Assembly (NCBI GenBank): GCA_964460605.1
Contig: CAYWPT010000001.1
Location: 33,548 to 97,547, forward strand
Direction: 5' to 3'
From: an uncultured Methanosarcinales archaeon
GTDB lineage: Archaea > Nanobdellota > Nanobdellia > Woesearchaeales > GW2011-AR9
DNA: 64,000 bases
The position numbers were made by a program, and so were the translations under genes. Positions within the stretch are counted from its first letter, which is position 1. Every line of letters starts with the position of its first letter. Under the pieces are notes generated by a model that searched no databases, was not told the DNA's origin, and was given only the letters and a program-made list of their open reading frames with translations. This document shows positions 8,675 to 37,250 of this stretch, one piece after another.

Positions 8675-9166
8675 TTATTTTTTTCTCGCTAACTTTCCAA
8701 TAACACTAGGAGATAATAAGAAGATTGAAAAGATGATAGCTAGTAACCAAGGATTATGAGTTTCATTAACAATTTCTAAGCTTGTAATTAAACTATTGCT
8801 CACTAAAACCATAACCACAATGTTTACAAAAGCAATTACTGGGATTGCAATCATTGCTAAGATATGATGTTCTTTATCTAAGTGCCCAATATCTAAAATT
8901 AAATAATTGTATAAGAATCCCATTACTAAAGCTAAGATTACTACAAACAAATAGAGGAGCAAAGGACTGATTAAAATTGAGATAAACATCAAAGCAAAAG
9001 CTGACATTATATTAGCGAATACTATCAATAATAAAGCGCTGTAGAAGACAATTTTAGAAAAATGTATGTCATGTTCAGTAACACGCTCAAGGCTCTTCAT
9101 AGCTTGTTTTACTTCCTTCTCATGCCAACCCTTCTTTTTCAAAGTTTCTCGTAAATTCTTCTTCAT
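8675..9166 (-). CDS. hypothetical polytopic membrane protein, cotranscribed downstream of minD-like
   Basis: charged N-terminus then 4 hydrophobic helices; 3-nt spacing from the MinD-like gene. Confidence 0.4.
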   Translation of the reverse strand: MKKNLRETLKKKGWHEKEVKQAMKSLERVTEHDIHFSKIVFYSALLLIVFANIMSAFALMFISILISPLLLYLFVVILALVMGFLYNYLILDIGHLDKEHHILAMIAIPVIAFVNIVVMVLVSNSLITSLEIVNETHNPWLLAIIFSIFLLSPSVIGKLARKK

Positions 9167-9168
9167 TT

Positions 9169-9882
9169 TTAATGTACATTACACAAAAATTCTGCTAATT
9201 GTTGGTATTGTTTAGCAGATCTGCTTCTTGGATAGTGAAATTGTAAAGGCACTTGATTGTGGACAGATTTTTTTATTTTATTATCTCTATACACATTTGC
9301 AATTACATGTGCTCCTAAAATTTCTTCAACTTCTGCTGATGCCATTTCATGACTTCCAAACCAAGAACTCATATTCAATAAAACTCCAGGGATAGTATTA
9401 TGCATAGAACGTGCTAATTCAATAGATTTTACAGCTTCCATCAAACTACTATTAGTTGGGTTTACCACAGTTAAAGCTTCGTCTGTGTGCTCTAAAATCT
9501 TTTTGAGATCTTCTCCTAATCCAGAGGGAGCATCAACTAAAACAAAGTCCGCAAGACCATTGAGATGGTCAAATATTTTTCCCAATTTTTCTTGATCTGT
9601 GTTTTTGAAAATATTGTATGAACTTGAAGCTGGGATAAAAGCTAAACCAGAATCATGTGTATGGATAATCTCATGAATAGAATTTTTCTTTTCTAGAAAA
9701 TGATTAAGACTTGTCTCAGCATCAATTAGTCCTAAGTGTAAACCAATATTTGGAGTTACAAGATTAGCGTCAACGATAAGCACACTTTTTCCATGATTCA
9801 TCAAAGCATGCGCCAGATTGATTGTAGAAGTGGTCTTTCCAACTCCCCCTTTACCAGAAATTAATGCAATAAATCTTGTCAT
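9169..9882 (-). CDS. MinD/ParA-family ATPase (archaeal MinD-like)
   Basis: deviant Walker A 'ISGKGGVGKTT' and overall MinD architecture; 237 aa. Confidence 0.8.
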   Translation of the reverse strand: MTRFIALISGKGGVGKTTSTINLAHALMNHGKSVLIVDANLVTPNIGLHLGLIDAETSLNHFLEKKNSIHEIIHTHDSGLAFIPASSSYNIFKNTDQEKLGKIFDHLNGLADFVLVDAPSGLGEDLKKILEHTDEALTVVNPTNSSLMEAVKSIELARSMHNTIPGVLLNMSSWFGSHEMASAEVEEILGAHVIANVYRDNKIKKSVHNQVPLQFHYPRSRSAKQYQQLAEFLCNVH

Positions 9883-9943: not shown

Positions 9944-10450
9944 TTACTCTTCTTCTTTTACAAATCCAAGAAGCTTCTTAGAATAATGGAAATATTGATG
10001 TACAAAATATTCACAAGTCTCTAAACTATCAATGTTGATCGCACAGGTCCTATCTTCTAGATGAAATAACATGCCCACATGTCTTCTATATTCATTGATT
10101 TTCTCATAATCTTTTTTAAGAAGATCTTTAAGGAAGAAATAAAAGTTTAAGAATTTCAACATTTCCTTATCTTCTTCAAAAACTTCAGATAATTTTGTTG
10201 CTTTGAGAGCTGGACTTTTTGGAATTCTATCAATTTTATCATTCTCTTTAGCTCTAATCATATGTGAATGAATAAGAATGTCATAAAAGCTTACAAAACG
10301 TAAAACTGCATTTCTTAAAACGTCGGTAGTCCTCGTATATTTTAGACTTACATAAATAATGTGTTCAACACGCTTCAGTTCTTCTCTGCTTTCAAAAAAA
10401 TACTCTTCTACTGTTGTATATTCTTCCATTGATAGTTTATCCCCATACAC
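9944..10450 (-). CDS. hypothetical protein
   Basis: 168-aa ORF with no motif I recognise. Confidence 0.3.
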   Translation of the reverse strand: MYGDKLSMEEYTTVEEYFFESREELKRVEHIIYVSLKYTRTTDVLRNAVLRFVSFYDILIHSHMIRAKENDKIDRIPKSPALKATKLSEVFEEDKEMLKFLNFYFFLKDLLKKDYEKINEYRRHVGMLFHLEDRTCAINIDSLETCEYFVHQYFHYSKKLLGFVKEEE

Positions 10451-10468
10451 CCCTACTACTACACTGTT

Positions 10469-10882
10469 TTACTTCCCTAATGATTGTTTTGTAGTGGCCA
10501 ACGTATTTAGGTAATTTTGAAGTAAATCTACAGAAAGTACTTGAACTTTATAATTGTTTTTACATATCACATAAGATTCTCCTCTTTTGAAGCTGAAAAG
10601 GTCGTTATCTTTCGCATATTTGAGTTCTTTGAGTGATGTAAATACTTCTTGAAATTCCGAAGATTTTTCGGATAATTTAGGCACTGAGGAATCTTTGATT
10701 CCTTGTGCAGAAAATATTTCATTTTCTTGCACTTCAGAGAGGTCCCTACTTGCAGCTTCTAAATGGTTAATTATTTCCAAAAATAACTTCACTTCTTTGA
10801 CTAAAGGATAGGTTTTGTTCAAAAGATAATCAGCATAAGCTAGCCTCTTTTCTATCCTTTCATTAATGGGAAGATCATCCAT
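10469..10882 (-). CDS. hypothetical protein
   Basis: 137-aa ORF with no motif I recognise. Confidence 0.3.
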   Translation of the reverse strand: MDDLPINERIEKRLAYADYLLNKTYPLVKEVKLFLEIINHLEAASRDLSEVQENEIFSAQGIKDSSVPKLSEKSSEFQEVFTSLKELKYAKDNDLFSFKRGESYVICKNNYKVQVLSVDLLQNYLNTLATTKQSLGK

Positions 10883-29538: not shown

Positions 29539-30171
29539 TTACTCCACTTTTCCCATAGCTTCTTTGATAGCTGACTCACTCTCTTCTGTCTTTTCCTGCT
29601 CTGCTGCAAGACGTTCGGCTTCATCAATTTCTTTATTGATTTCTTCAGCTTCACGCAAAATTTCTTCAGGAATTTGTTTCAAGAATGCATCTTTAGCTTC
29701 TGCGCTTGGCAGATCAAAATATGCAAAGAATTTTGGAGTTAATTTGATTTTAAAAGTTCGACCAAATTTTTCTTTAGCGATAAAACCTTGTTCCATAAGT
29801 GCTTTCATATGCTCGTATGCAGCTGCACTTCGCAATTTAATTACTTCACTTTGCACAACTGGGTATCGCCAAGCGATAACTGCGAGAGTGTCCATTAATG
29901 GTCTTTCTAATTCTGTGGATGAGACAATACTGCTCACCAATGGAATAAATTGATCTTCTACTGTTAATTTCCAAGAATTTTCTTTTTGAGTAATTTGTAA
30001 GGAGTTGTCTTGTGAGGCGTAATCACTTTGGAGCTCTTTGATAAGTTTCTCAGTTTTCTTTGCATCAAGTTCACATAAACTTGCTACTCTCTCAGTAGAA
30101 ATCTCTTTACCTACAGCAAAAAGGATTGCTTCTACTTTTTTCTTACTCACACCAACACCTTCTTTAGTCAT
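29539..30171 (-). CDS. scpB: segregation and condensation protein B (ScpB)
   Basis: tandem winged helices ('VEAILFAVGKEIS...', '...MDTLAVIAWRYPVVQSEV'); the likely start is the Met at 30171 rather than the track start 30219. Confidence 0.75.
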   Translation of the reverse strand: MTKEGVGVSKKKVEAILFAVGKEISTERVASLCELDAKKTEKLIKELQSDYASQDNSLQITQKENSWKLTVEDQFIPLVSSIVSSTELERPLMDTLAVIAWRYPVVQSEVIKLRSAAAYEHMKALMEQGFIAKEKFGRTFKIKLTPKFFAYFDLPSAEAKDAFLKQIPEEILREAEEINKEIDEAERLAAEQEKTEESESAIKEAMGKVE

Positions 30172-30172
30172 T

Positions 30173-30757
30173 TTATGCAATTTCCCCACTTGCTTGTTTA
30201 ATGGAATATAATTCGCCATTCAAGTCTACTTTGCCTTCATCGATTAATCTATCAAGATAATCTCCTAGCTTTTCTTTTTCAACACCAGTTAACTTAGATA
30301 GTTGGTTTAAGTTTAAATCACTTTTGCCTAAGAGTACTAAAAGATAGTTTCTTAAGAGACCCGCCATATTTTTTTGTAAAATCTGATTTCTCATATTCAG
30401 CTGCTTAGCAATCATATCTACTTGGTGTAATCTTGCTTGTAGATCGTTTAATACATGTGAGAATTCCCTATCGTTTAATGTAAGACTTTTTGGTTCAACA
30501 ATTTCGATAATACTTGGCATGTAATCAAAACAAAAAGACACGATATTGTCAATTTTTTCTGTGCTAAAATCGAGTTCTGCAAAAGCCACCCATAAATCTG
30601 TATTATCTTGCTTTTTTCCTTCAGCGAGTTCTAGATTTTCAAGTTTATAATTCTCATCTTTTTGGAATTTCTCAAGATATCCCTTCAAAGAATTTTCAAC
30701 ATGTTCTTTGGGCTTTCCCATTACTTCAATTAATGCTCTACATACTACTTTTGTCAT
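30173..30757 (-). CDS. hypothetical protein with C-terminal winged helix; a ScpA-like kleisin is possible from synteny only
   Basis: C-terminal 'LNQLSKLTGVEKEKLGDYLDRLIDEGKV' wHTH; immediately upstream of scpB with 1-nt spacing; the N-terminus is not recognisably ScpA. Confidence 0.3.
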   Translation of the reverse strand: MTKVVCRALIEVMGKPKEHVENSLKGYLEKFQKDENYKLENLELAEGKKQDNTDLWVAFAELDFSTEKIDNIVSFCFDYMPSIIEIVEPKSLTLNDREFSHVLNDLQARLHQVDMIAKQLNMRNQILQKNMAGLLRNYLLVLLGKSDLNLNQLSKLTGVEKEKLGDYLDRLIDEGKVDLNGELYSIKQASGEIA

Positions 30758-30806: not shown

Positions 30807-32660
30807 TTATTTCTTTATAATAAGGTAGGATAAGAGTAAAATAAAGCTTAAAGCAAAGAAGTAAGGAACTAAGTGAATTGTCTTGGCAGCGCTACTCTCA
30901 TAGACTATGACTCCTGAGCGATTCATGACTTTTTGGTCTTTTTTAATACTTATTTTTTCTTGATAATTATTTTCGCTTGCTTCTGCCTGTGTGAGAGTTT
31001 GTATAGTATCATCAACAATAAATTCTTGGACAATGACTTCTTTTTCAAAAGTCTCACAAGTTTTTTTGCTAATATCATCGATGGAAAATTTTTCTTTGAT
31101 TTCTTGACCAAAACCTTTAATGTAAAGGGTGGCACTTCCATCTGCAATTTTTTCATTACAATTTGGGGTAAGCTCTAATGGTACTGTAAATATTCCTTCT
31201 GAAAATTTTTCTTGCATGTCTACTTTAGTTCTTTTTGTAATACTTTTATCAGATTTTTCAGCCCAGAGCTCAATAACATTTTTTGTCTCATCCCCTTTGT
31301 AAGCTTGGAATTTTACCCTGAATGTATCTCCCCAAGAAACTTCTTCATCTTTTCCAAAATCATAAAAATCAATAAAAAATATTTCTGATTCATTCTTTTG
31401 ATACTCAGGATTTACTGCAAGAAGTCTTTTTACAATATCGTTCTTTTCATTATAATCCTCACAGGAATTTTCCTCTATCCAAAACGCTAATTGGTAAGAA
31501 CCTTTTTTCAAATTTGGTGAATAAGATTTACTTTGACTAGTTGTGATTTCTTTATTTGTCCAAGGAGAATAACTCTCTACTTTTTTACCAAACAAATCTT
31601 GTATCTCCCCTTTTACACTAAGATTACTTTTAAGACCATCCAGTCTATTTGTTTCTATTGTAAAAGAAAGATCGTCACCCTGAAAAATTGCGTCTTCATA
31701 GGCGATATCTAAACCCCAATCACATTGAGGGTTGTACTGATTTTCTGCATTTGGCGTTGGAAGAGTTTGGTGCCAAATATCGTCAATTAAAGACCAAGAC
31801 ATCCCTTCTGTGCTTCCTGCAAAATTAGTGTAAGCAATCTTAGCGTCTCCAACATAAAGAGAGAGTTCTTCGAAGTCATAATTATTCAATGAAAAATCAC
31901 TATCTCCGTCTTTGTAAATTACCTTATAATTATTTGGATGGATTAAAGTAGAAGCGCCCATTGTTTTTGTTTGTGCAATAATTAATTCGTTTTCTTTTTT
32001 TATATCGGTAAAATAGAGGCCTTTAAGGTCTATAGTTTTTTCACCATCATTGTATAATTCAATCCATTCACCATTTGGTTTATCTGCCCCATCTTCTCCA
32101 AAAGGGTTTGCTAAGAATTCTGTGATGAAAATATTTTCAAATTCAATTGAAATTTCAGATATGCTATTCTCTTCTCCTGGGCTTCCACCTTGCGTGAGAG
32201 ATTCTCCCCATGTTCCATCACTTCTTCTTTCTAAAGTTAAATTGTTATTATTTGCTAATTTATCATTTGTTAAATAGGTATAATCAAAAGAAGTATTACA
32301 CCATTCACTACCATTGAGAATAAGCTCTTTTCCAGAATTTACTAAACTAAAAGTTATTTCCTGATAATTTTCTGGTTCTTTAAAATAATATGAAAAATTT
32401 TCATAATCTCTTAAGATAATTTTGTAACTATTTGCCGAAATGTTCCCTTCAAGTTCTTTGCCCATCAAACTACATTGACTAATATCTATTATCTCATCCA
32501 CTCCATTATACAATTCTATCCATTCGCATTGTGCATCTGGACATTGTCCTGGATCATACATGACTTCATTAATTAATATTTGTGCAGAAACTAAGCTTGA
32601 GAAGAGTATGAACATGAACGTGCCTAAAAGGGATAGTTTCATAAAGAAAAAACAAGACAT
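30807..32660 (-). CDS. cell-surface protein with two lamin-tail domains (LTD) and C-terminal TM anchor
   Basis: two copies of the LTD signature ('ILINEVMYDPG...EWIELYN' and 'IFITEFLANPFG...EWIELYN'), N-terminal signal/TM, C-terminal hydrophobic anchor 'YFFALSFILLLSYLIIKK'. Confidence 0.6.
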   Translation of the reverse strand: MSCFFFMKLSLLGTFMFILFSSLVSAQILINEVMYDPGQCPDAQCEWIELYNGVDEIIDISQCSLMGKELEGNISANSYKIILRDYENFSYYFKEPENYQEITFSLVNSGKELILNGSEWCNTSFDYTYLTNDKLANNNNLTLERRSDGTWGESLTQGGSPGEENSISEISIEFENIFITEFLANPFGEDGADKPNGEWIELYNDGEKTIDLKGLYFTDIKKENELIIAQTKTMGASTLIHPNNYKVIYKDGDSDFSLNNYDFEELSLYVGDAKIAYTNFAGSTEGMSWSLIDDIWHQTLPTPNAENQYNPQCDWGLDIAYEDAIFQGDDLSFTIETNRLDGLKSNLSVKGEIQDLFGKKVESYSPWTNKEITTSQSKSYSPNLKKGSYQLAFWIEENSCEDYNEKNDIVKRLLAVNPEYQKNESEIFFIDFYDFGKDEEVSWGDTFRVKFQAYKGDETKNVIELWAEKSDKSITKRTKVDMQEKFSEGIFTVPLELTPNCNEKIADGSATLYIKGFGQEIKEKFSIDDISKKTCETFEKEVIVQEFIVDDTIQTLTQAEASENNYQEKISIKKDQKVMNRSGVIVYESSAAKTIHLVPYFFALSFILLLSYLIIKK

Positions 32661-33030
32661 CTAGAATAAAAAACTAATCTAAATACACTATTTACTCTGT
32701 TATAGGTACTTGGATGACATATGCTTACTTATGGTGATTTGGGCGATTTTTAGATGATTTTTATAAAAATAGATTAAAAATGAGATAATAGAGGTAAAGT
32801 GAGAAGATTAGAACATTATGGGCTTTCTGGCCCTGATGCCTTTTGACACATTTATCGTTACGAAATTTCTCTTGATAATAAAATTATCATTACAAGAAAA
32901 GATAGCCAAAAACCATTAATTAGACAAATACCTATTGCAATGGTTGTCTCTCGAAATTTGTTTTTGAAAAGTTACTATTCTAAAATACTCAAGAAACTTT
33001 AAAAGCGAAATTACTTTGTTTTCTTAGATT

Positions 33031-33570
33031 ATGGGATTATTTTTTAGAAAGAAAAGGCCAAGCACAGGGATACCGGCACCAATTAGAAAATTTGGTGACT
33101 CAGAAGCACTCAAACTTCCAAGTAAAGATGGAGCTGAGAGAGTGATTACCCCTAAGGCTAAACAGTTCAAAAAAGCTGCAGGTGTAGAAGGTGGTTTTGA
33201 TAAGCAACTCAAAGATGATATGATTCCTATGCCGCCGAGTAGACCTCCTAGAGCTGCTCCACTTCCAAGTCGTCCAAGTCCAAAACTCCCAGATTTAGGT
33301 GCTCCTTTACCTGATATGCCAGAGAGACCTCTTGTTTCAGTTAAGTTAAATAATCAGGACGGACCAGTTTTTGTTGGAATGGAAAATTATAAGATGATAC
33401 TCAACGAAATCAAAGATGCTAAAAAGGAACTAAACGATTTAGCCGAGATTAGCAGAAATTTAGAAAAATCAGAATTTAGTGAAGAAAAAAGTTTTGGAGA
33501 TCTTCGATCTTCAGTAAAAAGTTTACACGATAAACTACTTAGCGTAGATGAAGTGTTATTCAAACAGTAG
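33031..33570 (+). CDS. hypothetical protein: Pro-rich linker plus C-terminal helical module (trio member 1)
   Basis: 'PMPPSRPPRAAPLPSRPSPKLPDLGAPLPDMPERP' then 'GPVFVGMENYKMILNEIKDAKKELNDL...'. Confidence 0.4.
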   Translation: MGLFFRKKRPSTGIPAPIRKFGDSEALKLPSKDGAERVITPKAKQFKKAAGVEGGFDKQLKDDMIPMPPSRPPRAAPLPSRPSPKLPDLGAPLPDMPERPLVSVKLNNQDGPVFVGMENYKMILNEIKDAKKELNDLAEISRNLEKSEFSEEKSFGDLRSSVKSLHDKLLSVDEVLFKQ

Positions 33571-33577
33571 GTGATTA

Positions 33578-33808
33578 ATGATGGAAAAAATGCCTGTATT
33601 TGTACAAGTTGAAGATTACAGAGACGTATTAGCACTCTTACGTGCAATTGAAAAGAAGGTTGATGATGCAAAAGATACCTTATTGAGAATTAACGAATTA
33701 AAAAATGAGGAAGATGAATTAGTTGAACATTGGCAAAATGGACTTGCTGAAGTTGAGAAAAAGATTGAATTTATTAATCACTCATTAAATGAACCAGAAC
33801 ATTTCTAA
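33578..33808 (+). CDS. hypothetical protein: helical module only (trio member 2)
   Basis: 'MPVFVQVEDYRDVLALLRAIEKKVDDAKDTL...' parallels the C-terminus of the upstream protein. Confidence 0.4.
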   Translation: MMEKMPVFVQVEDYRDVLALLRAIEKKVDDAKDTLLRINELKNEEDELVEHWQNGLAEVEKKIEFINHSLNEPEHF

Positions 33809-33809
33809 A

Positions 33810-34325
33810 ATGGCTCGAAAGAAAAAGAAGACTACACGAAGAAAGAGTACAAAAAAACGAAGCAGAAGCACTCGTAAGAAAATAGTAAAGAGTCCTCCAA
33901 GAGATAAACAACCATCCTATATGGTAAGAGTTGGGGAACCAAAATCTGTTCGAAAAGACGTATTAGAATCTTTACGTGAGGTTATCTTAATTATGCAAGC
34001 ATATGAAGAATTTAAAAGAATCCAAGCTGAGAAAAAAATTGTTTTTGCTCAATTAAAAGACGATGTAAAAGAACTCAACAATATGATTGATAATAGGTTA
34101 CGTTTCTATTTACCTAAAGGAAAGTTAACATTAGCACTTAAAAAAGAAAAAATTCAAGAAGATCAAAGAGTAAAATTAATGCGTGAATCAGTTGCTAAGG
34201 TTACTCCAAAAGTTGTTGGGTTAAAAGCTAAAGCCGTACCAGTAGCTCCAAAAAAGAGTGAGAAAGGCCTAGAAGACCTAGAGATGCAATTAGCAAGTAT
34301 TGAAAAACAATTAGGCGACATGTAA
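33810..34325 (+). CDS. hypothetical protein: K/R-rich tail plus helical module (trio member 3)
   Basis: 'MARKKKKTTRRKSTKKRSRSTRKKIVKSPP' then 'SYMVRVGEPKSVRKDVLESLREVILIMQAYEEFKRIQ...'; the start is taken at the Met after the upstream stop. Confidence 0.4.
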   Translation: MARKKKKTTRRKSTKKRSRSTRKKIVKSPPRDKQPSYMVRVGEPKSVRKDVLESLREVILIMQAYEEFKRIQAEKKIVFAQLKDDVKELNNMIDNRLRFYLPKGKLTLALKKEKIQEDQRVKLMRESVAKVTPKVVGLKAKAVPVAPKKSEKGLEDLEMQLASIEKQLGDM

Positions 34326-34436
34326 TTATTATTTCTTTTTTCATATAAACAAAAAGCTACTTTTTGAGATAAGAAATTAAATCTTCGTTTAATTTCATAT
34401 AATTTTATAAAAGACTTCTAGCTTGAGCTATTTAAT

Positions 34437-34520
34437 GCGAGTGTGCCGGAGTGGTCAAACGGGGCGGACTCAAAATCCGTTAGCTTAGTGCTTACGCAGG
34501 TTCGAGCCCTGCCACTCGCA
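34437..34520 (+). tRNA. tRNA-Leu (CAA), class II with long variable arm
   Basis: acceptor GCGAGTG/CACTCGC, anticodon stem GCGGA/TCCGT with loop CTCAAAA, 15-nt variable arm, T-arm GCAGG-TTCGAGC-CCTGC; TATA 'TTTTATAAAAG' ~28 nt upstream. Confidence 0.85.
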
Positions 34521-34569
34521 TTTTCTAAAACAAAGGATTTTTAAATCAGGTTAATAGTTATAGTTTAAA

Positions 34570-35913
34570 ATGGGAATTGAAGTATGCACAATTGGCGGTT
34601 TCTCCGAATGTGGAAGAAATTGTACAGCAGTGAGAGTTGATGACGAAGTAGTTATCTTAGACATTGGTTTAGAGATGGAAAACTATATTCGTCATACACA
34701 AAGTGAACGAGAAAATTTAGTAAAATTAAACTACAAAGATTTAGTCCGTGTTAATGCTGTTCCTAATTTAGATTTAATCAATGATTGGAAAGATAAAGTT
34801 GTGGCGATTGTTCCTTCACATGCACACTTAGACCATATTGGAGCGATTCCTTTTGCAGCCCCCATGTTTCCTAAAGTTCCTATTATTTCTACACCTTATA
34901 CGGTAGAAGTTATCAAAAGTATTCTCAAAGACGAGAGGATTAGATTAAAAAATAGATTAATTGGACAAAATCCAAATTCTAAGTATAAATTATCTGATAA
35001 AATTACTATTGAATTTGTAAATATTACACATAGTATTCCACACACAGCAATTGTTGTTTTACACACACCTTATGGAAAAGTAATGTATGCAAACGATTAC
35101 AAAATTGACCTTACTCCAACTTTAGGACAAAAACCTAATTTTAAGCGTCTTAAAGAGTTAGCAGAAGAAGGAATTGATTTACTTATTAGTGAAACACTTT
35201 ATGCAGATCATCATTCAAAATGTCCATCCGAAGCAATTGCACGTCAAATGCTCAGAGATTTAATTGCAGGAACAGACCATACAGGCCAAGGTATTATTGT
35301 AACCACCTTCGCTTCACACATTGCTCGTTTAAAGAGTGCAATTGAAATTGGGAAAAAATTAGATCGTAAGATTGTCTTATTTGGTAGATCACTTAAGAAA
35401 TATATCACTGCAGCTGAGAATATTGGGATTATAAACTTCTCTAAAGATGTCAAAATGTATAGTAGACGTCATGAACTTGAGAAAGTTATGCGACAAATCA
35501 ACAAAGAAGGTATGGATAAGTATATGATTATTTGTACCGGACATCAAGGTGAACCTGGTGCTGTTTTATCTCGTATCTCTGATGGTCGTTTACCTTTAAA
35601 ATTAAGTAAAAGAGATTTAGTTGTCTTTTCATGTTCAGTAATTCCGGTTGAGCTAAATATTCAGAATAGATTAGAGTTAGAGCGTAAATTAAAAGGAAAA
35701 GGTGCACGACTCTTTGTAGATGTACACGTATCAGGTCATGGACACAGAGAAGATTACCGTGAACTTATTGAAATGATTAAACCAAAACATGTCATCCCTG
35801 CCCATGCTGGACACCAAAAAGCTGAACATATGAAAGAATTATGTTTAGAGATTGGTTATGTGGATAAGGAAACATTCCATATGATGGAGAATGGTAAACG
35901 TTTATTACTATAA
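34570..35913 (+). CDS. rnj: ribonuclease J (beta-CASP metallo-beta-lactamase RNase)
   Basis: MBL motif 'PSHAHLDHIGAIP', beta-CASP region, 447 aa typical of archaeal RNase J. Confidence 0.85.
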   Translation: MGIEVCTIGGFSECGRNCTAVRVDDEVVILDIGLEMENYIRHTQSERENLVKLNYKDLVRVNAVPNLDLINDWKDKVVAIVPSHAHLDHIGAIPFAAPMFPKVPIISTPYTVEVIKSILKDERIRLKNRLIGQNPNSKYKLSDKITIEFVNITHSIPHTAIVVLHTPYGKVMYANDYKIDLTPTLGQKPNFKRLKELAEEGIDLLISETLYADHHSKCPSEAIARQMLRDLIAGTDHTGQGIIVTTFASHIARLKSAIEIGKKLDRKIVLFGRSLKKYITAAENIGIINFSKDVKMYSRRHELEKVMRQINKEGMDKYMIICTGHQGEPGAVLSRISDGRLPLKLSKRDLVVFSCSVIPVELNIQNRLELERKLKGKGARLFVDVHVSGHGHREDYRELIEMIKPKHVIPAHAGHQKAEHMKELCLEIGYVDKETFHMMENGKRLLL

Positions 35914-35915
35914 TT

Positions 35916-37250
35916 TTATTTTGCTTTACGATATTTTCCTTGACTAATCCATCTTGTTTTTACGACTTTGGGCATTCTATCATGAACAATAAATCCCTTT
36001 TTTTGTGGTTCTACATAAAATATTTCTTTATACTTGAATTTATCAATTTTTTTTGCTTCTTCTTTTCCATTAGAAAAGCCAGGAGGAACTACACCAGTTG
36101 CTAAAGTAGGCAATGCTTCTGCAGTATAACAAGAAAAATCTCCTGGAGCCATGCTCGCAGTGCTAACTAGAAAAGTGCGGGGCATATTTGGGAGAATATA
36201 AATTATTTGATCTCTTCTTGTTACTTGTTTTATTTCTTTAAGATGTTTTCTTGAATCAAAAAGAATATCTGCGAGAGTGTTTTCTGCAGTGAGTTTTCTT
36301 ACTCTTCTCCAAGAAGGGATCCTAAAACTATCTTCAACAGTGAGAAGAAGATCCCCTAACCATTTATCTTGACAATGTGAATTATCTTTAAGTGATTTTG
36401 CCTCAGGAACAGCTAAAAATGCTTGTGTCCTTCTTCCAAAAACTTTTGGAACATCTTTTCTAAGAATTTCTTCAAGTTCAGAGATTGAAGTATCTTTACT
36501 CGCTGAGAGTGTATTACTTGTTTCTGCATCAAAAGTTGTAGTTGTTAAATCAGTATCATCACCTAAAGTTTTCAAAACTTCTAATGAAGCACCATTCCAC
36601 TTATCTGAATATACTGCAATCGCTGAAGCTGCATGATTATCTGAGTAAGCGATACCTGTTTGGATTTGGGCATAAGCCATAAATGAAGAAAAGAGTACTG
36701 AAAAATCTTCACAATCTCCATTACCATCCAATAAAGTTTGGAATGGATATTTAGCAAAATCTGCTTTTGGATCATTTTTGCTCCCGTCCGCCATCCAATC
36801 AAAAAACCAACCAGTTAAAGGTGCATGATAGGCATATAAATCTGGTTGATATTCTACATTATCATTAATAAATTCAAGAACATTGACAACATAATCTAAT
36901 TCATCTTCTGAATTATCCCATAATGCTTTAGCCATAGGTGATATTTGTTGTTGAACTACAAAATATTCTGCTCCTAATCCTGCAAATTTTTCTGAATCTT
37001 TGTACATAACAATTACATGATCTTTCAGATAAGAAATTCCTTTTTCTTCCCCATCTAAGGTGTAAGTTGTAGTTATTATCTCTTCTAATCCTGATTGAAG
37101 ATAATATTCACCACCCATAACTACTGTAGTTTGGTCTAAAGCATATTGCCCTGCAGAGAATACTCCATAAGCTAAAAGAACTGAAGCTGCTAAAGCTGGC
37201 ATTAGCATATCTTCTTTTCTTCTTTCATCCCAATAATCTTCATTATCCAT
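35916..37250 (-). CDS. transglutaminase-like domain membrane protein
   Basis: N-terminal TM; TGase-core 'GNGDCEDFSVLFSSFMAYAQIQTGI' (G-x-C-x-D-F ... ). Confidence 0.55.
   Translation of the reverse strand: MDNEDYWDERRKEDMLMPALAASVLLAYGVFSAGQYALDQTTVVMGGEYYLQSGLEEIITTTYTLDGEEKGISYLKDHVIVMYKDSEKFAGLGAEYFVVQQQISPMAKALWDNSEDELDYVVNVLEFINDNVEYQPDLYAYHAPLTGWFFDWMADGSKNDPKADFAKYPFQTLLDGNGDCEDFSVLFSSFMAYAQIQTGIAYSDNHAASAIAVYSDKWNGASLEVLKTLGDDTDLTTTTFDAETSNTLSASKDTSISELEEILRKDVPKVFGRRTQAFLAVPEAKSLKDNSHCQDKWLGDLLLTVEDSFRIPSWRRVRKLTAENTLADILFDSRKHLKEIKQVTRRDQIIYILPNMPRTFLVSTASMAPGDFSCYTAEALPTLATGVVPPGFSNGKEEAKKIDKFKYKEIFYVEPQKKGFIVHDRMPKVVKTRWISQGKYRKAK

Follow-up and report, generated by a model that had tools for sequence, protein, structure and literature searches.

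What do three small, tightly spaced genes encode in the genome of a Woesearchaeales-like archaeon, and what could their products build together? The genes lie in a 64,000-nucleotide stretch of DNA (hereafter the window) from an uncultured archaeon, placed by GTDB in the Woesearchaeales lineage GW2011-AR9. The window has a GC content of 33.4% and carries archaeal housekeeping genes (GyrA, ScpB, RNase J, PCNA, NAC and SecD), and its nearest relatives are metagenome-assembled genomes labelled Woesearchaeota, Nanoarchaeota or simply archaeon. Our answer, to which we give a probability of roughly 40%, is that the three products, specific to Woesearchaeota-like DPANN archaea, assemble as a heteromeric coiled coil into a scaffold at the cytoplasmic side of the membrane. 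The proteins, here called P1, P2 and P3, are encoded as follows.

33031–33570, plus strand: P1, 179 residues in four parts (N-terminal motif, short motif, Pro-rich linker, C-terminal module)
33581–33808, plus strand: P2, 75 residues, a bare module with a net charge of about −8
33810–34325, plus strand: P3, 171 residues (basic tail, strand, long helix, weaker helix, linker, C-terminal helix)

P1, P2 and P3 are real genes in a single operon. A first-pass annotation had described three consecutive plus-strand open reading frames (ORFs), and these are present as called at 33031–33570 (179 residues), 33578–33808 (76 residues) and 33789–34325 (178 residues), with every peptide it quoted found in the translations; the starts of the second and third were corrected, giving proteins of 75 and 171 residues. 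For P2, the start is most likely the ATG at 33581 (MEKMPVF) rather than 33578, because orthologs agree on it and a GGTGAT Shine-Dalgarno (SD) motif lies 5 nt before. By the same comparison with orthologs, P3 starts at the ATG at 33810 (MARKKK), 1 nt past the P2 stop; the start at 33789 (MNQNISK...) arises because the conserved P2 C-terminus (...LNEPEH) is read there in another frame. The same −20 overlap of P2 and P3 was found in 8 loci in all, the window included, and gene callers giving the 178-residue form are probably wrong. Two short signals accompany the operon.

32998–33005, plus strand: TATA-like box TTTAAAAG, about 30 nt ahead of the P1 ATG
33570–33575, plus strand: GGTGAT SD-like motif, preceding P2 and overlapping the P1 stop codon

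Both recur across relatives. Of 96 related loci, 76 (79%) have a TATA-like motif 24 to 42 nt ahead of the P1 start codon, compared with 48 of 695 random positions (7%), and its position peaks at −28 to −31, implying a leaderless or near-leaderless operon transcript. An SD-like motif is found ahead of P2 at 122 of 138 loci (88%, against 106 of 700 background positions, or 15%).

The trio is conserved as a unit, with the same gene order in about 150 related archaeal loci spanning two divergent subgroups, A and B. Scanning one genome per species yielded 80 P2-containing loci, with a P1-like protein in 79 and P3 in 77. Metagenomes, scanned with P2 relatives of greater divergence as seeds, added 80 further loci, which make up subgroup B; all 80 carry a P1-like gene and 69 carry P3. 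Intergenic gaps are mostly 1 to 12 nt across the 67 loci in which all three genes were called, and order and spacing are kept where P1 identity to the window protein falls to about 30–35%. A syntenic relative with 44% P1 identity encodes a trio of 202, 75 and 169 residues, flanked by ScpB, an MJ0538-like gene and a Lamin-Tail-Domain (LTD) gene on one side and by RNase J and PCNA on the other. P2 belongs to a large family. In an exhaustive HMMER search, its profile retrieved 1,731 representatives of 50%-identity clusters at E ≤ 1e-3 (287 of them at E ≤ 1e-10), with lengths almost always between 70 and 80 residues. Mean column identity of P2 is 63% over 29 orthologs. No relatives of the trio occur among INPHARED phages, PLSDB plasmids or IMG/VR sequences, and a mobile-element origin was rejected on this basis.

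Sequence comparison identifies the C-terminal ~70 residues of P1 (P1C; residues 111–179, nt 33361–33567) and P2 as true paralogs forming a new module family. Window P1 and P2 match each other by BLASTP (E = 8e-4 over 25 residues), and hhalign relates the P1C and P2 family profiles at 84–91% probability (E about 1e-6). A P2 hidden Markov model (HMM) matches P1-like proteins at 1e-7 to 1e-9, a P1C HMM matches P2, and BLAST single-linkage clustering joins the two families into one. Their joint alignment (~270 sequences) is gapless over the full length, with hydrophobic positions coinciding from PVFVKV to (I/V)DKTLF, and the joint module HMM scores window P2 at E = 2.7e-28 and window P1 at E = 2.2e-24. 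One relative, P0217, has the P1 architecture and carries a P2-like C-domain. The module is recognized by a P[VLI][FY]VK[VI]xxY strand and turn, after which a continuous helix runs through a conserved polar break, K-N-E-E-D / Y-N-E-E, to the motif (I/V)DKTLF(K/E) at the C-terminus.

P3 is not detectably a member of this family. BLASTP of P3 with P1 or P2 gave E = 0.01–0.87, which is not significant, and the P1C/P2 module HMM gave E = 0.6. What P3 shares is a layout, a five-residue ###-# strand (YMVRV) directly ahead of a long helix, together with the heptad register described below. The first-pass view that all three proteins carry a related module thus holds for P1C and P2 and is not supported for P3.

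Structurally, each protein is predicted to combine a strand with a long helix. P2 was modeled as the 76-residue ORF from 33578, to which the following residue numbers refer. AlphaFold2 predicts one continuous helix (residues 11–70) with a mean predicted local distance difference test (pLDDT) score of 87.3, after an extended N-terminal segment that includes the strand PVFVQV. Because an isolated 60-residue helix cannot be stable alone, partners of P2 would be obligate, and because this isolated helix is so highly conserved, it must be buried against them. The P3 prediction, run on a 9-sequence alignment, gives a disordered basic tail (residues 1–44), a helix at 45–100 with pLDDT >90, a weaker helix at 105–130, a disordered linker and a final helix at 152–170. 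None of P1, P2 and P3 contains a transmembrane segment or a signal peptide.

The three families also agree in register. With each family anchored on its first strand residue and 21 shifts tried, hydrophobicity profiles correlate best at shift 0, with r = 0.77 for P2/P1C and r = 0.46 for each of P2/P3 and P1C/P3. In P1C, P2 and P3 alike, the hydrophobic seam is broken at offsets 35 and 38. Residues at and next to these predicted core positions, counted from the strand start, are as follows.

Offset 35: P2, K/R in 131 of 131; P1C, E/D in 85 of 127; P3, Q in 74 and R in 49 of 125
Offset 38: P2, E in 130 of 131; P1C, E in 74 and K in 25 of 127; P3, K in 122 of 125
Offset 39: P2, D in 131 of 131; P1C, E/D in 116 of 127; P3, V/I/L

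Net charges are complementary (P2, −8 to −9; P3 core, +3 to +6). Taken together, the unvarying order of the genes, their coupled translation, helices of equal length, the shared register and complementary core charges point to a parallel heteromeric coiled coil. This arrangement would resemble heteromeric coiled coils with a buried ionic layer, such as the zero layer of the SNARE four-helix bundle, in that different helices of ~55–60 residues share a register, with conserved polar or charged residues at predicted core positions; the counterparts here, from the first strand residue, would be P2 K35/E38/D39, P3 K38 and P1C E35/E38. Unlike SNAREs, the trio has no transmembrane anchors, its putative bundle comprises three proteins rather than four helices, and its N-terminal strand has no SNARE counterpart. 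SNARE profiles gave no match for the trio, the sole syntaxin-like match having E = 0.058.

Register and spacing also bear on a simpler account, in which the trio consists of three co-transcribed, functionally independent small helical proteins (regulators or chaperone-like proteins, for example) that form no common complex and whose similarity reflects generic coiled-coil composition. The lack of a statistical relation of P3 to P1 or P2 is consistent with this account, as is the fact that every database match is coiled-coil noise. We consider it very unlikely, given that order and few-nucleotide spacing are fixed across a deep divergence, that the conservation of an isolated helix in P2 implies extensive buried contacts, and that heptad register and charged core positions agree across P1C, P2 and P3.

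The N-terminus of P1 is the feature that points to the membrane. In the window it reads MGLFFRKKRP, a hydrophobic-plus-polybasic stretch for which the family consensus is MGWLFGKKK; it is near-invariant in subgroup A as MGWLFGKKK(x)VPKVPFPEG. In subgroup B, P1 begins with an amphipathic MGFLxFLKKK-type segment followed by ELDIPPxPP. The helical hydrophobic moment of this segment is 0.45–0.61, and the E. coli MinD membrane-targeting sequence gives 0.44. By analogy, the P1 N-terminus resembles membrane-targeting sequences. It is followed by a conserved short motif (VITPxxxxFKKAAGV) and a Pro-rich acidic linker (residues ~64–106; Pro 14–16%), which leads into the strand-plus-helix module. The layout is comparable to that of membrane tethers in division or cytoskeletal assemblies (ZipA, and the membrane-targeting sequences of SepF/FtsA/MinD/MinE), with a hydrophobic-plus-basic end motif, a long Pro-rich spacer and an assembly domain, and the subgroup B N-termini MGFLKFLKREKK and MAFLDFFKKKRK resemble the MinD/MinE membrane-targeting sequences, in their hydrophobic moment as well. 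Unlike these tethers, the trio shows no sequence or fold homology to them and no FtsZ- or MinD-binding domain, its assembly domain would be a heteromeric coiled coil, and the only MinD/ParA-type gene of the window is located 23 kb away.

Two additional elements were noted in subgroup B P1 (loci L087–L166), a conserved (E/D)LD(I/L)PPxPP after the amphipathic segment of the N-terminus and, ahead of the module, a short ER-x-AV-x-EE helix that is likewise conserved. Judged from their sequence, both look like short linear binding motifs.

P3 contributes a charged and a conserved element. Its K/R/S/T-rich tail occupies residues 1–36, ahead of the strand YMVRV (residues 37–41), and a polybasic disordered stretch of about +8 is retained in both subgroups. 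The stretch is N-terminal to the core in subgroup A, where it forms the H1-like tail of the window, and in subgroup B follows the core and precedes the C-terminal helix. The amphipathic C-terminal helix (residues 152–170, nt 34263–34319), ELxxLExQLxxIExQL, holds most of the invariant residues of the protein. The tails that the first-pass annotation had described as swapped are thus conserved rather than simply exchanged, and the H1-like N-terminal tail of P3 is limited to one subgroup. P2 indeed has no appendage; the PxxP linker assigned to P1 is accompanied by the near-invariant N-terminal motif, and the conserved C-terminal helix of P3 had gone unnoted. The trio itself is kept in ~150 loci, with the position of the P3 polybasic stretch differing between the subgroups.

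These two termini invite comparison with the ESCRT-III/PspA/Vipp1 superfamily. The P1 start, MG-(L/W)-(L/F)-F (MGWLFGKKK in the consensus, MGLFF- in the window), seems similar to the MG-x-(L/F)F start of CHMP3, CHMP6, PspA and Vipp1, and in P3 a basic helical core is joined by a flexible linker to an acidic C-terminal helix that is conserved. The trio could accordingly be imagined as a divergent remodeling polymer split over three polypeptides, with an insertion motif in P1 and a basic core and regulatory C-terminal helix in P3. We regard this as the least probable of the accounts discussed here. No member matched the Snf7 (PF03357) or PspA_IM30 (PF04012) Pfam profiles, even at E ≤ 0.1–1 (window proteins at E ≤ 1; 76 P2 relatives and 10 subgroup B P1/P3 proteins at E ≤ 0.01–0.1). 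The models are single long helices, lacking the α1–α2 hairpin by which membership would be recognized; the relevant elements lie on separate polypeptides; and on inspection the P3 C-terminal helix fails the MIM1 charge pattern. No gene for a Vps4-type or other AAA+ ATPase was found within ±6 kb of the trio in ~150 loci, the span to which this search was confined.

A functional parallel on paper is CdvA, the division adaptor of crenarchaea, a coiled-coil protein reported to bind both membrane and DNA, in which a conserved C-terminal peptide on a flexible linker recruits a partner. P3 likewise joins a coiled coil with a polybasic stretch and ends in a conserved helix. Unlike CdvA, the trio has no PRC-barrel and no homology to it, no CdvB/CdvC gene lies nearby, and the features are split over three proteins.

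On the scaffold reading, P1, P2 and P3 would be co-translated from one leaderless operon, and their strand-plus-long-helix segments would come together, most simply at 1:1:1, as a heteromeric coiled coil that is parallel and in register, with the N-terminal strands of P1C, P2 and P3 forming a small sheet. P2 would be the acidic, very highly conserved core subunit. P1 would tether the complex to the cytoplasmic membrane face through its N-terminal motif and long Pro-rich acidic spacer. The polybasic disordered stretch of P3 would bind a negatively charged surface (nucleic acid or acidic lipid), and its C-terminal helix, on a flexible linker, may dock onto the bundle or link complexes to one another or to a partner. 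The outcome would be a peripheral membrane scaffold or cytoskeletal adaptor. The first-pass annotation had suggested a self-assembling filament or scaffold, or a membrane- or nucleoid-associated system, without choosing among them. The anatomy, with a strand and long helix in each protein, the P1 N-terminus and the P3 polybasic stretch, is compatible with a self-assembling scaffold at the membrane; the premise of one core module in three paralogs is not supported.

Several results weigh against this scaffold. Comparison of P3 with P1C/P2 by hhalign returned a probability of only 0.2–5%, and the P3 register match is modest, r = 0.46 being followed by 0.40 at the next-best shift. No fusion of the module with P3, nor of two modules, occurs in ~160 loci. 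The subgroup A P1 motif has a hydrophobic moment of 0.11 and is not an amphipathic helix, so membrane binding would need insertion of Trp/Leu/Phe plus charge. The conserved neighborhood of the trio lacks an FtsZ, SepF, Vps4 or MinD partner, and synteny with ScpB, the MJ0538-like gene, RNase J and PCNA may be a matter of ancestral gene order and not of a common function. That a complex forms, its stoichiometry, its binding to membrane and the process it serves in the cell are inferences from these patterns.

A bolder version would make the trio a previously unrecognized membrane-associated cytoskeletal or remodeling system of DPANN archaea (GTDB Nanoarchaeota, Woesearchaeales-like), its three subunits forming an in-register coiled coil locked by a buried ionic layer. 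Here P1 would tether the assembly to the membrane, the polybasic stretch and C-terminal helix of P3 would cross-link it, and its role could be in cell division, in envelope or host-contact organization, or in chromosome anchoring. This version is speculative, and we hold it to be doubtful.

Among the abundant, uncultured Woesearchaeota and their DPANN relatives, a function has been assigned to only a minority of conserved proteins. The trio operon is among the better-conserved lineage-specific DPANN gene sets, and the anatomy of its products suggests a structural role close to the membrane. If the products do form a heteromeric coiled coil tethered to the membrane, this would provide a concrete handle on DPANN cell architecture, and since P1, P2 and P3 are small and soluble, reconstitution could be easy. 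If the scaffold reading is false, two new protein families with clear annotation signatures are still defined.

The genomic neighborhood of the trio includes a conserved divergent gene, given here as context.

30807–32660, minus strand: LTD protein gene (PF00932, E = 6e-18), divergent neighbor of the trio

The first-pass annotation had recognized both this divergent lamin-tail gene and the ORF-free, AT-rich region that separates it from P1, and both are borne out: the spacer (32661–33030, 370 bp) has 27.8% GC and contains no ORF of at least 40 residues. The LTD translation, read by eye rather than with a prediction tool, seems to begin with a signal peptide and to end in a membrane anchor. The trio might then be a cytoplasmic accessory module that organizes, positions or anchors this surface protein from inside. 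The LTD gene is the immediate upstream, divergent neighbor in 69–70 of the ~80 loci from genomes and in 29 from metagenomes, and the common promoter spacer is typically just ~100–120 bp. Eleven subgroup B loci have a radical SAM gene 1–2 kb upstream in place of the LTD gene, and because the LTD protein ends directly after its membrane anchor (...LIIKK), it offers no cytoplasmic domain for binding. We therefore see little likelihood in this proposal. The window spacer is ~250 bp longer than that of most relatives; the extra sequence is AT-rich, with more TATA-like motifs at 32760–32781. An Rfam scan of 32400–34700 found a tRNA-Leu and nothing in the spacer.

The wider conserved neighborhood comprises GyrA, ScpB, the MJ0538-like gene and LTD upstream, and RNase J and PCNA downstream. 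This suggests envelope or chromosome-related roles without deciding between them. The chromosomal side could be served by a nucleoid-membrane tether, in which the coiled-coil complex links DNA, bound by the P3 polybasic stretch, to the membrane, bound by P1, in concert with adjacent SMC-ScpAB-type machinery. The polybasic stretch is always present in P3, histone H1-like in the window, and both subgroups have GyrA, ScpB and the MJ0538-like gene upstream and PCNA downstream. At the same time, the LTD gene separates the trio from ScpB and the MJ0538-like gene and transcription is divergent, acidic lipids are bound equally well by polybasic stretches, no DNA-binding fold is predicted, and the synteny may be ancestral order in a small-genome lineage. 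A tether of this kind is unlikely, if less so than the LTD accessory module.

In the window, ScpB (29539–30219, minus strand) is accompanied by a 194-residue protein of the MJ0538 family (30173–30757, minus strand; PF27325, per precomputed data) with weak winged-helix hints only. The MJ0538-like gene, which always accompanies ScpB (61 and 58 of the 80 loci from genomes) and overlaps it by 47 nt, may encode a divergent kleisin/ScpA partner. Within the paper library searched, nothing relevant was found on DPANN lamin-tail proteins or Woesearchaeota coiled-coil proteins, and MJ0538 is mentioned nowhere.

Database searches agree with the first-pass judgement that the module lies outside the families it considered. 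Scans of the three window proteins against Pfam (E ≤ 1) and NCBIfam (E ≤ 10) gave no significant match, and SepF (PF04472), ZapA (PF05164), MinE (PF03776), DivIVA and phasin were absent from the matches returned; the profiles for ESCRT-III/Snf7 and PspA were silent, as described above. The corresponding scans of relatives (76 of P2, 24 of P3, and subgroup B P1/P3 proteins) gave sub-threshold coiled-coil noise only (MtrG, Med9, Laminin_II, Rad50, ASRP). Profiles from five alignments had no significant match in the PDB, and none of the three proteins matches a solved fold. The P1C/P2 and P3 families are new to the databases searched; the kind of protein that they appear to be, a peripheral-membrane coiled-coil scaffold, is familiar.

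Three individual candidates were considered and set aside. For Med9 (PF07544), window P2 gave no match and 14 of 76 P2 relatives reached E ≤ 0.01; the matches are sporadic, cover the helix only and were rejected as coiled-coil noise, with bit scores in the Woesearchaeal orthologs P0047, P0053 and P0037 of 24.7–27.4 against a gathering threshold of 26.9. Further weak Mediator-subunit matches (Med11, Med28 and, in Foldseek, a core-Mediator chain) were seen, and the Mediator matches probably represent generic helical-bundle similarity. A MinE-like reading, based on LRKDILE in P3 and on the P1 N-terminus, was dropped in view of the absence of a MinE profile match and of a MinD gene in the conserved neighborhood; the identity of LRKDILE with the E. 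coli MinE sequence is a seven-residue coincidence. A fusogen reading was rejected as well, the haemagglutinin HA2 matches (E = 0.4–0.9) being heptad noise in proteins lacking a signal peptide or transmembrane segment.

Elsewhere in the window, an ORF at 10469–10882 (minus strand, 137 residues) was considered as a fourth paralog and rejected: it is the third-best match to the module HMM, yet scores 12 bits (E = 0.003). It is one of three small minus-strand ORFs (8675–9166, 9944–10450 and 10469–10882), none with a Pfam match, that flank the MinD/ParA-type P-loop ATPase at 9169–9882 (minus strand; Pfam ParA, E = 3.6e-23). Downstream of the trio, a 444-residue protein with weak transglutaminase-like matches (35916–37250, minus strand; DUF553, E = 7.7e-4) is encoded between RNase J and PCNA and is not there in the syntenic relative L001. 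Between the trio and RNase J lies a tRNA-Leu (CAA) at 34436–34521 (plus strand), where L001 has a NUDIX gene instead.

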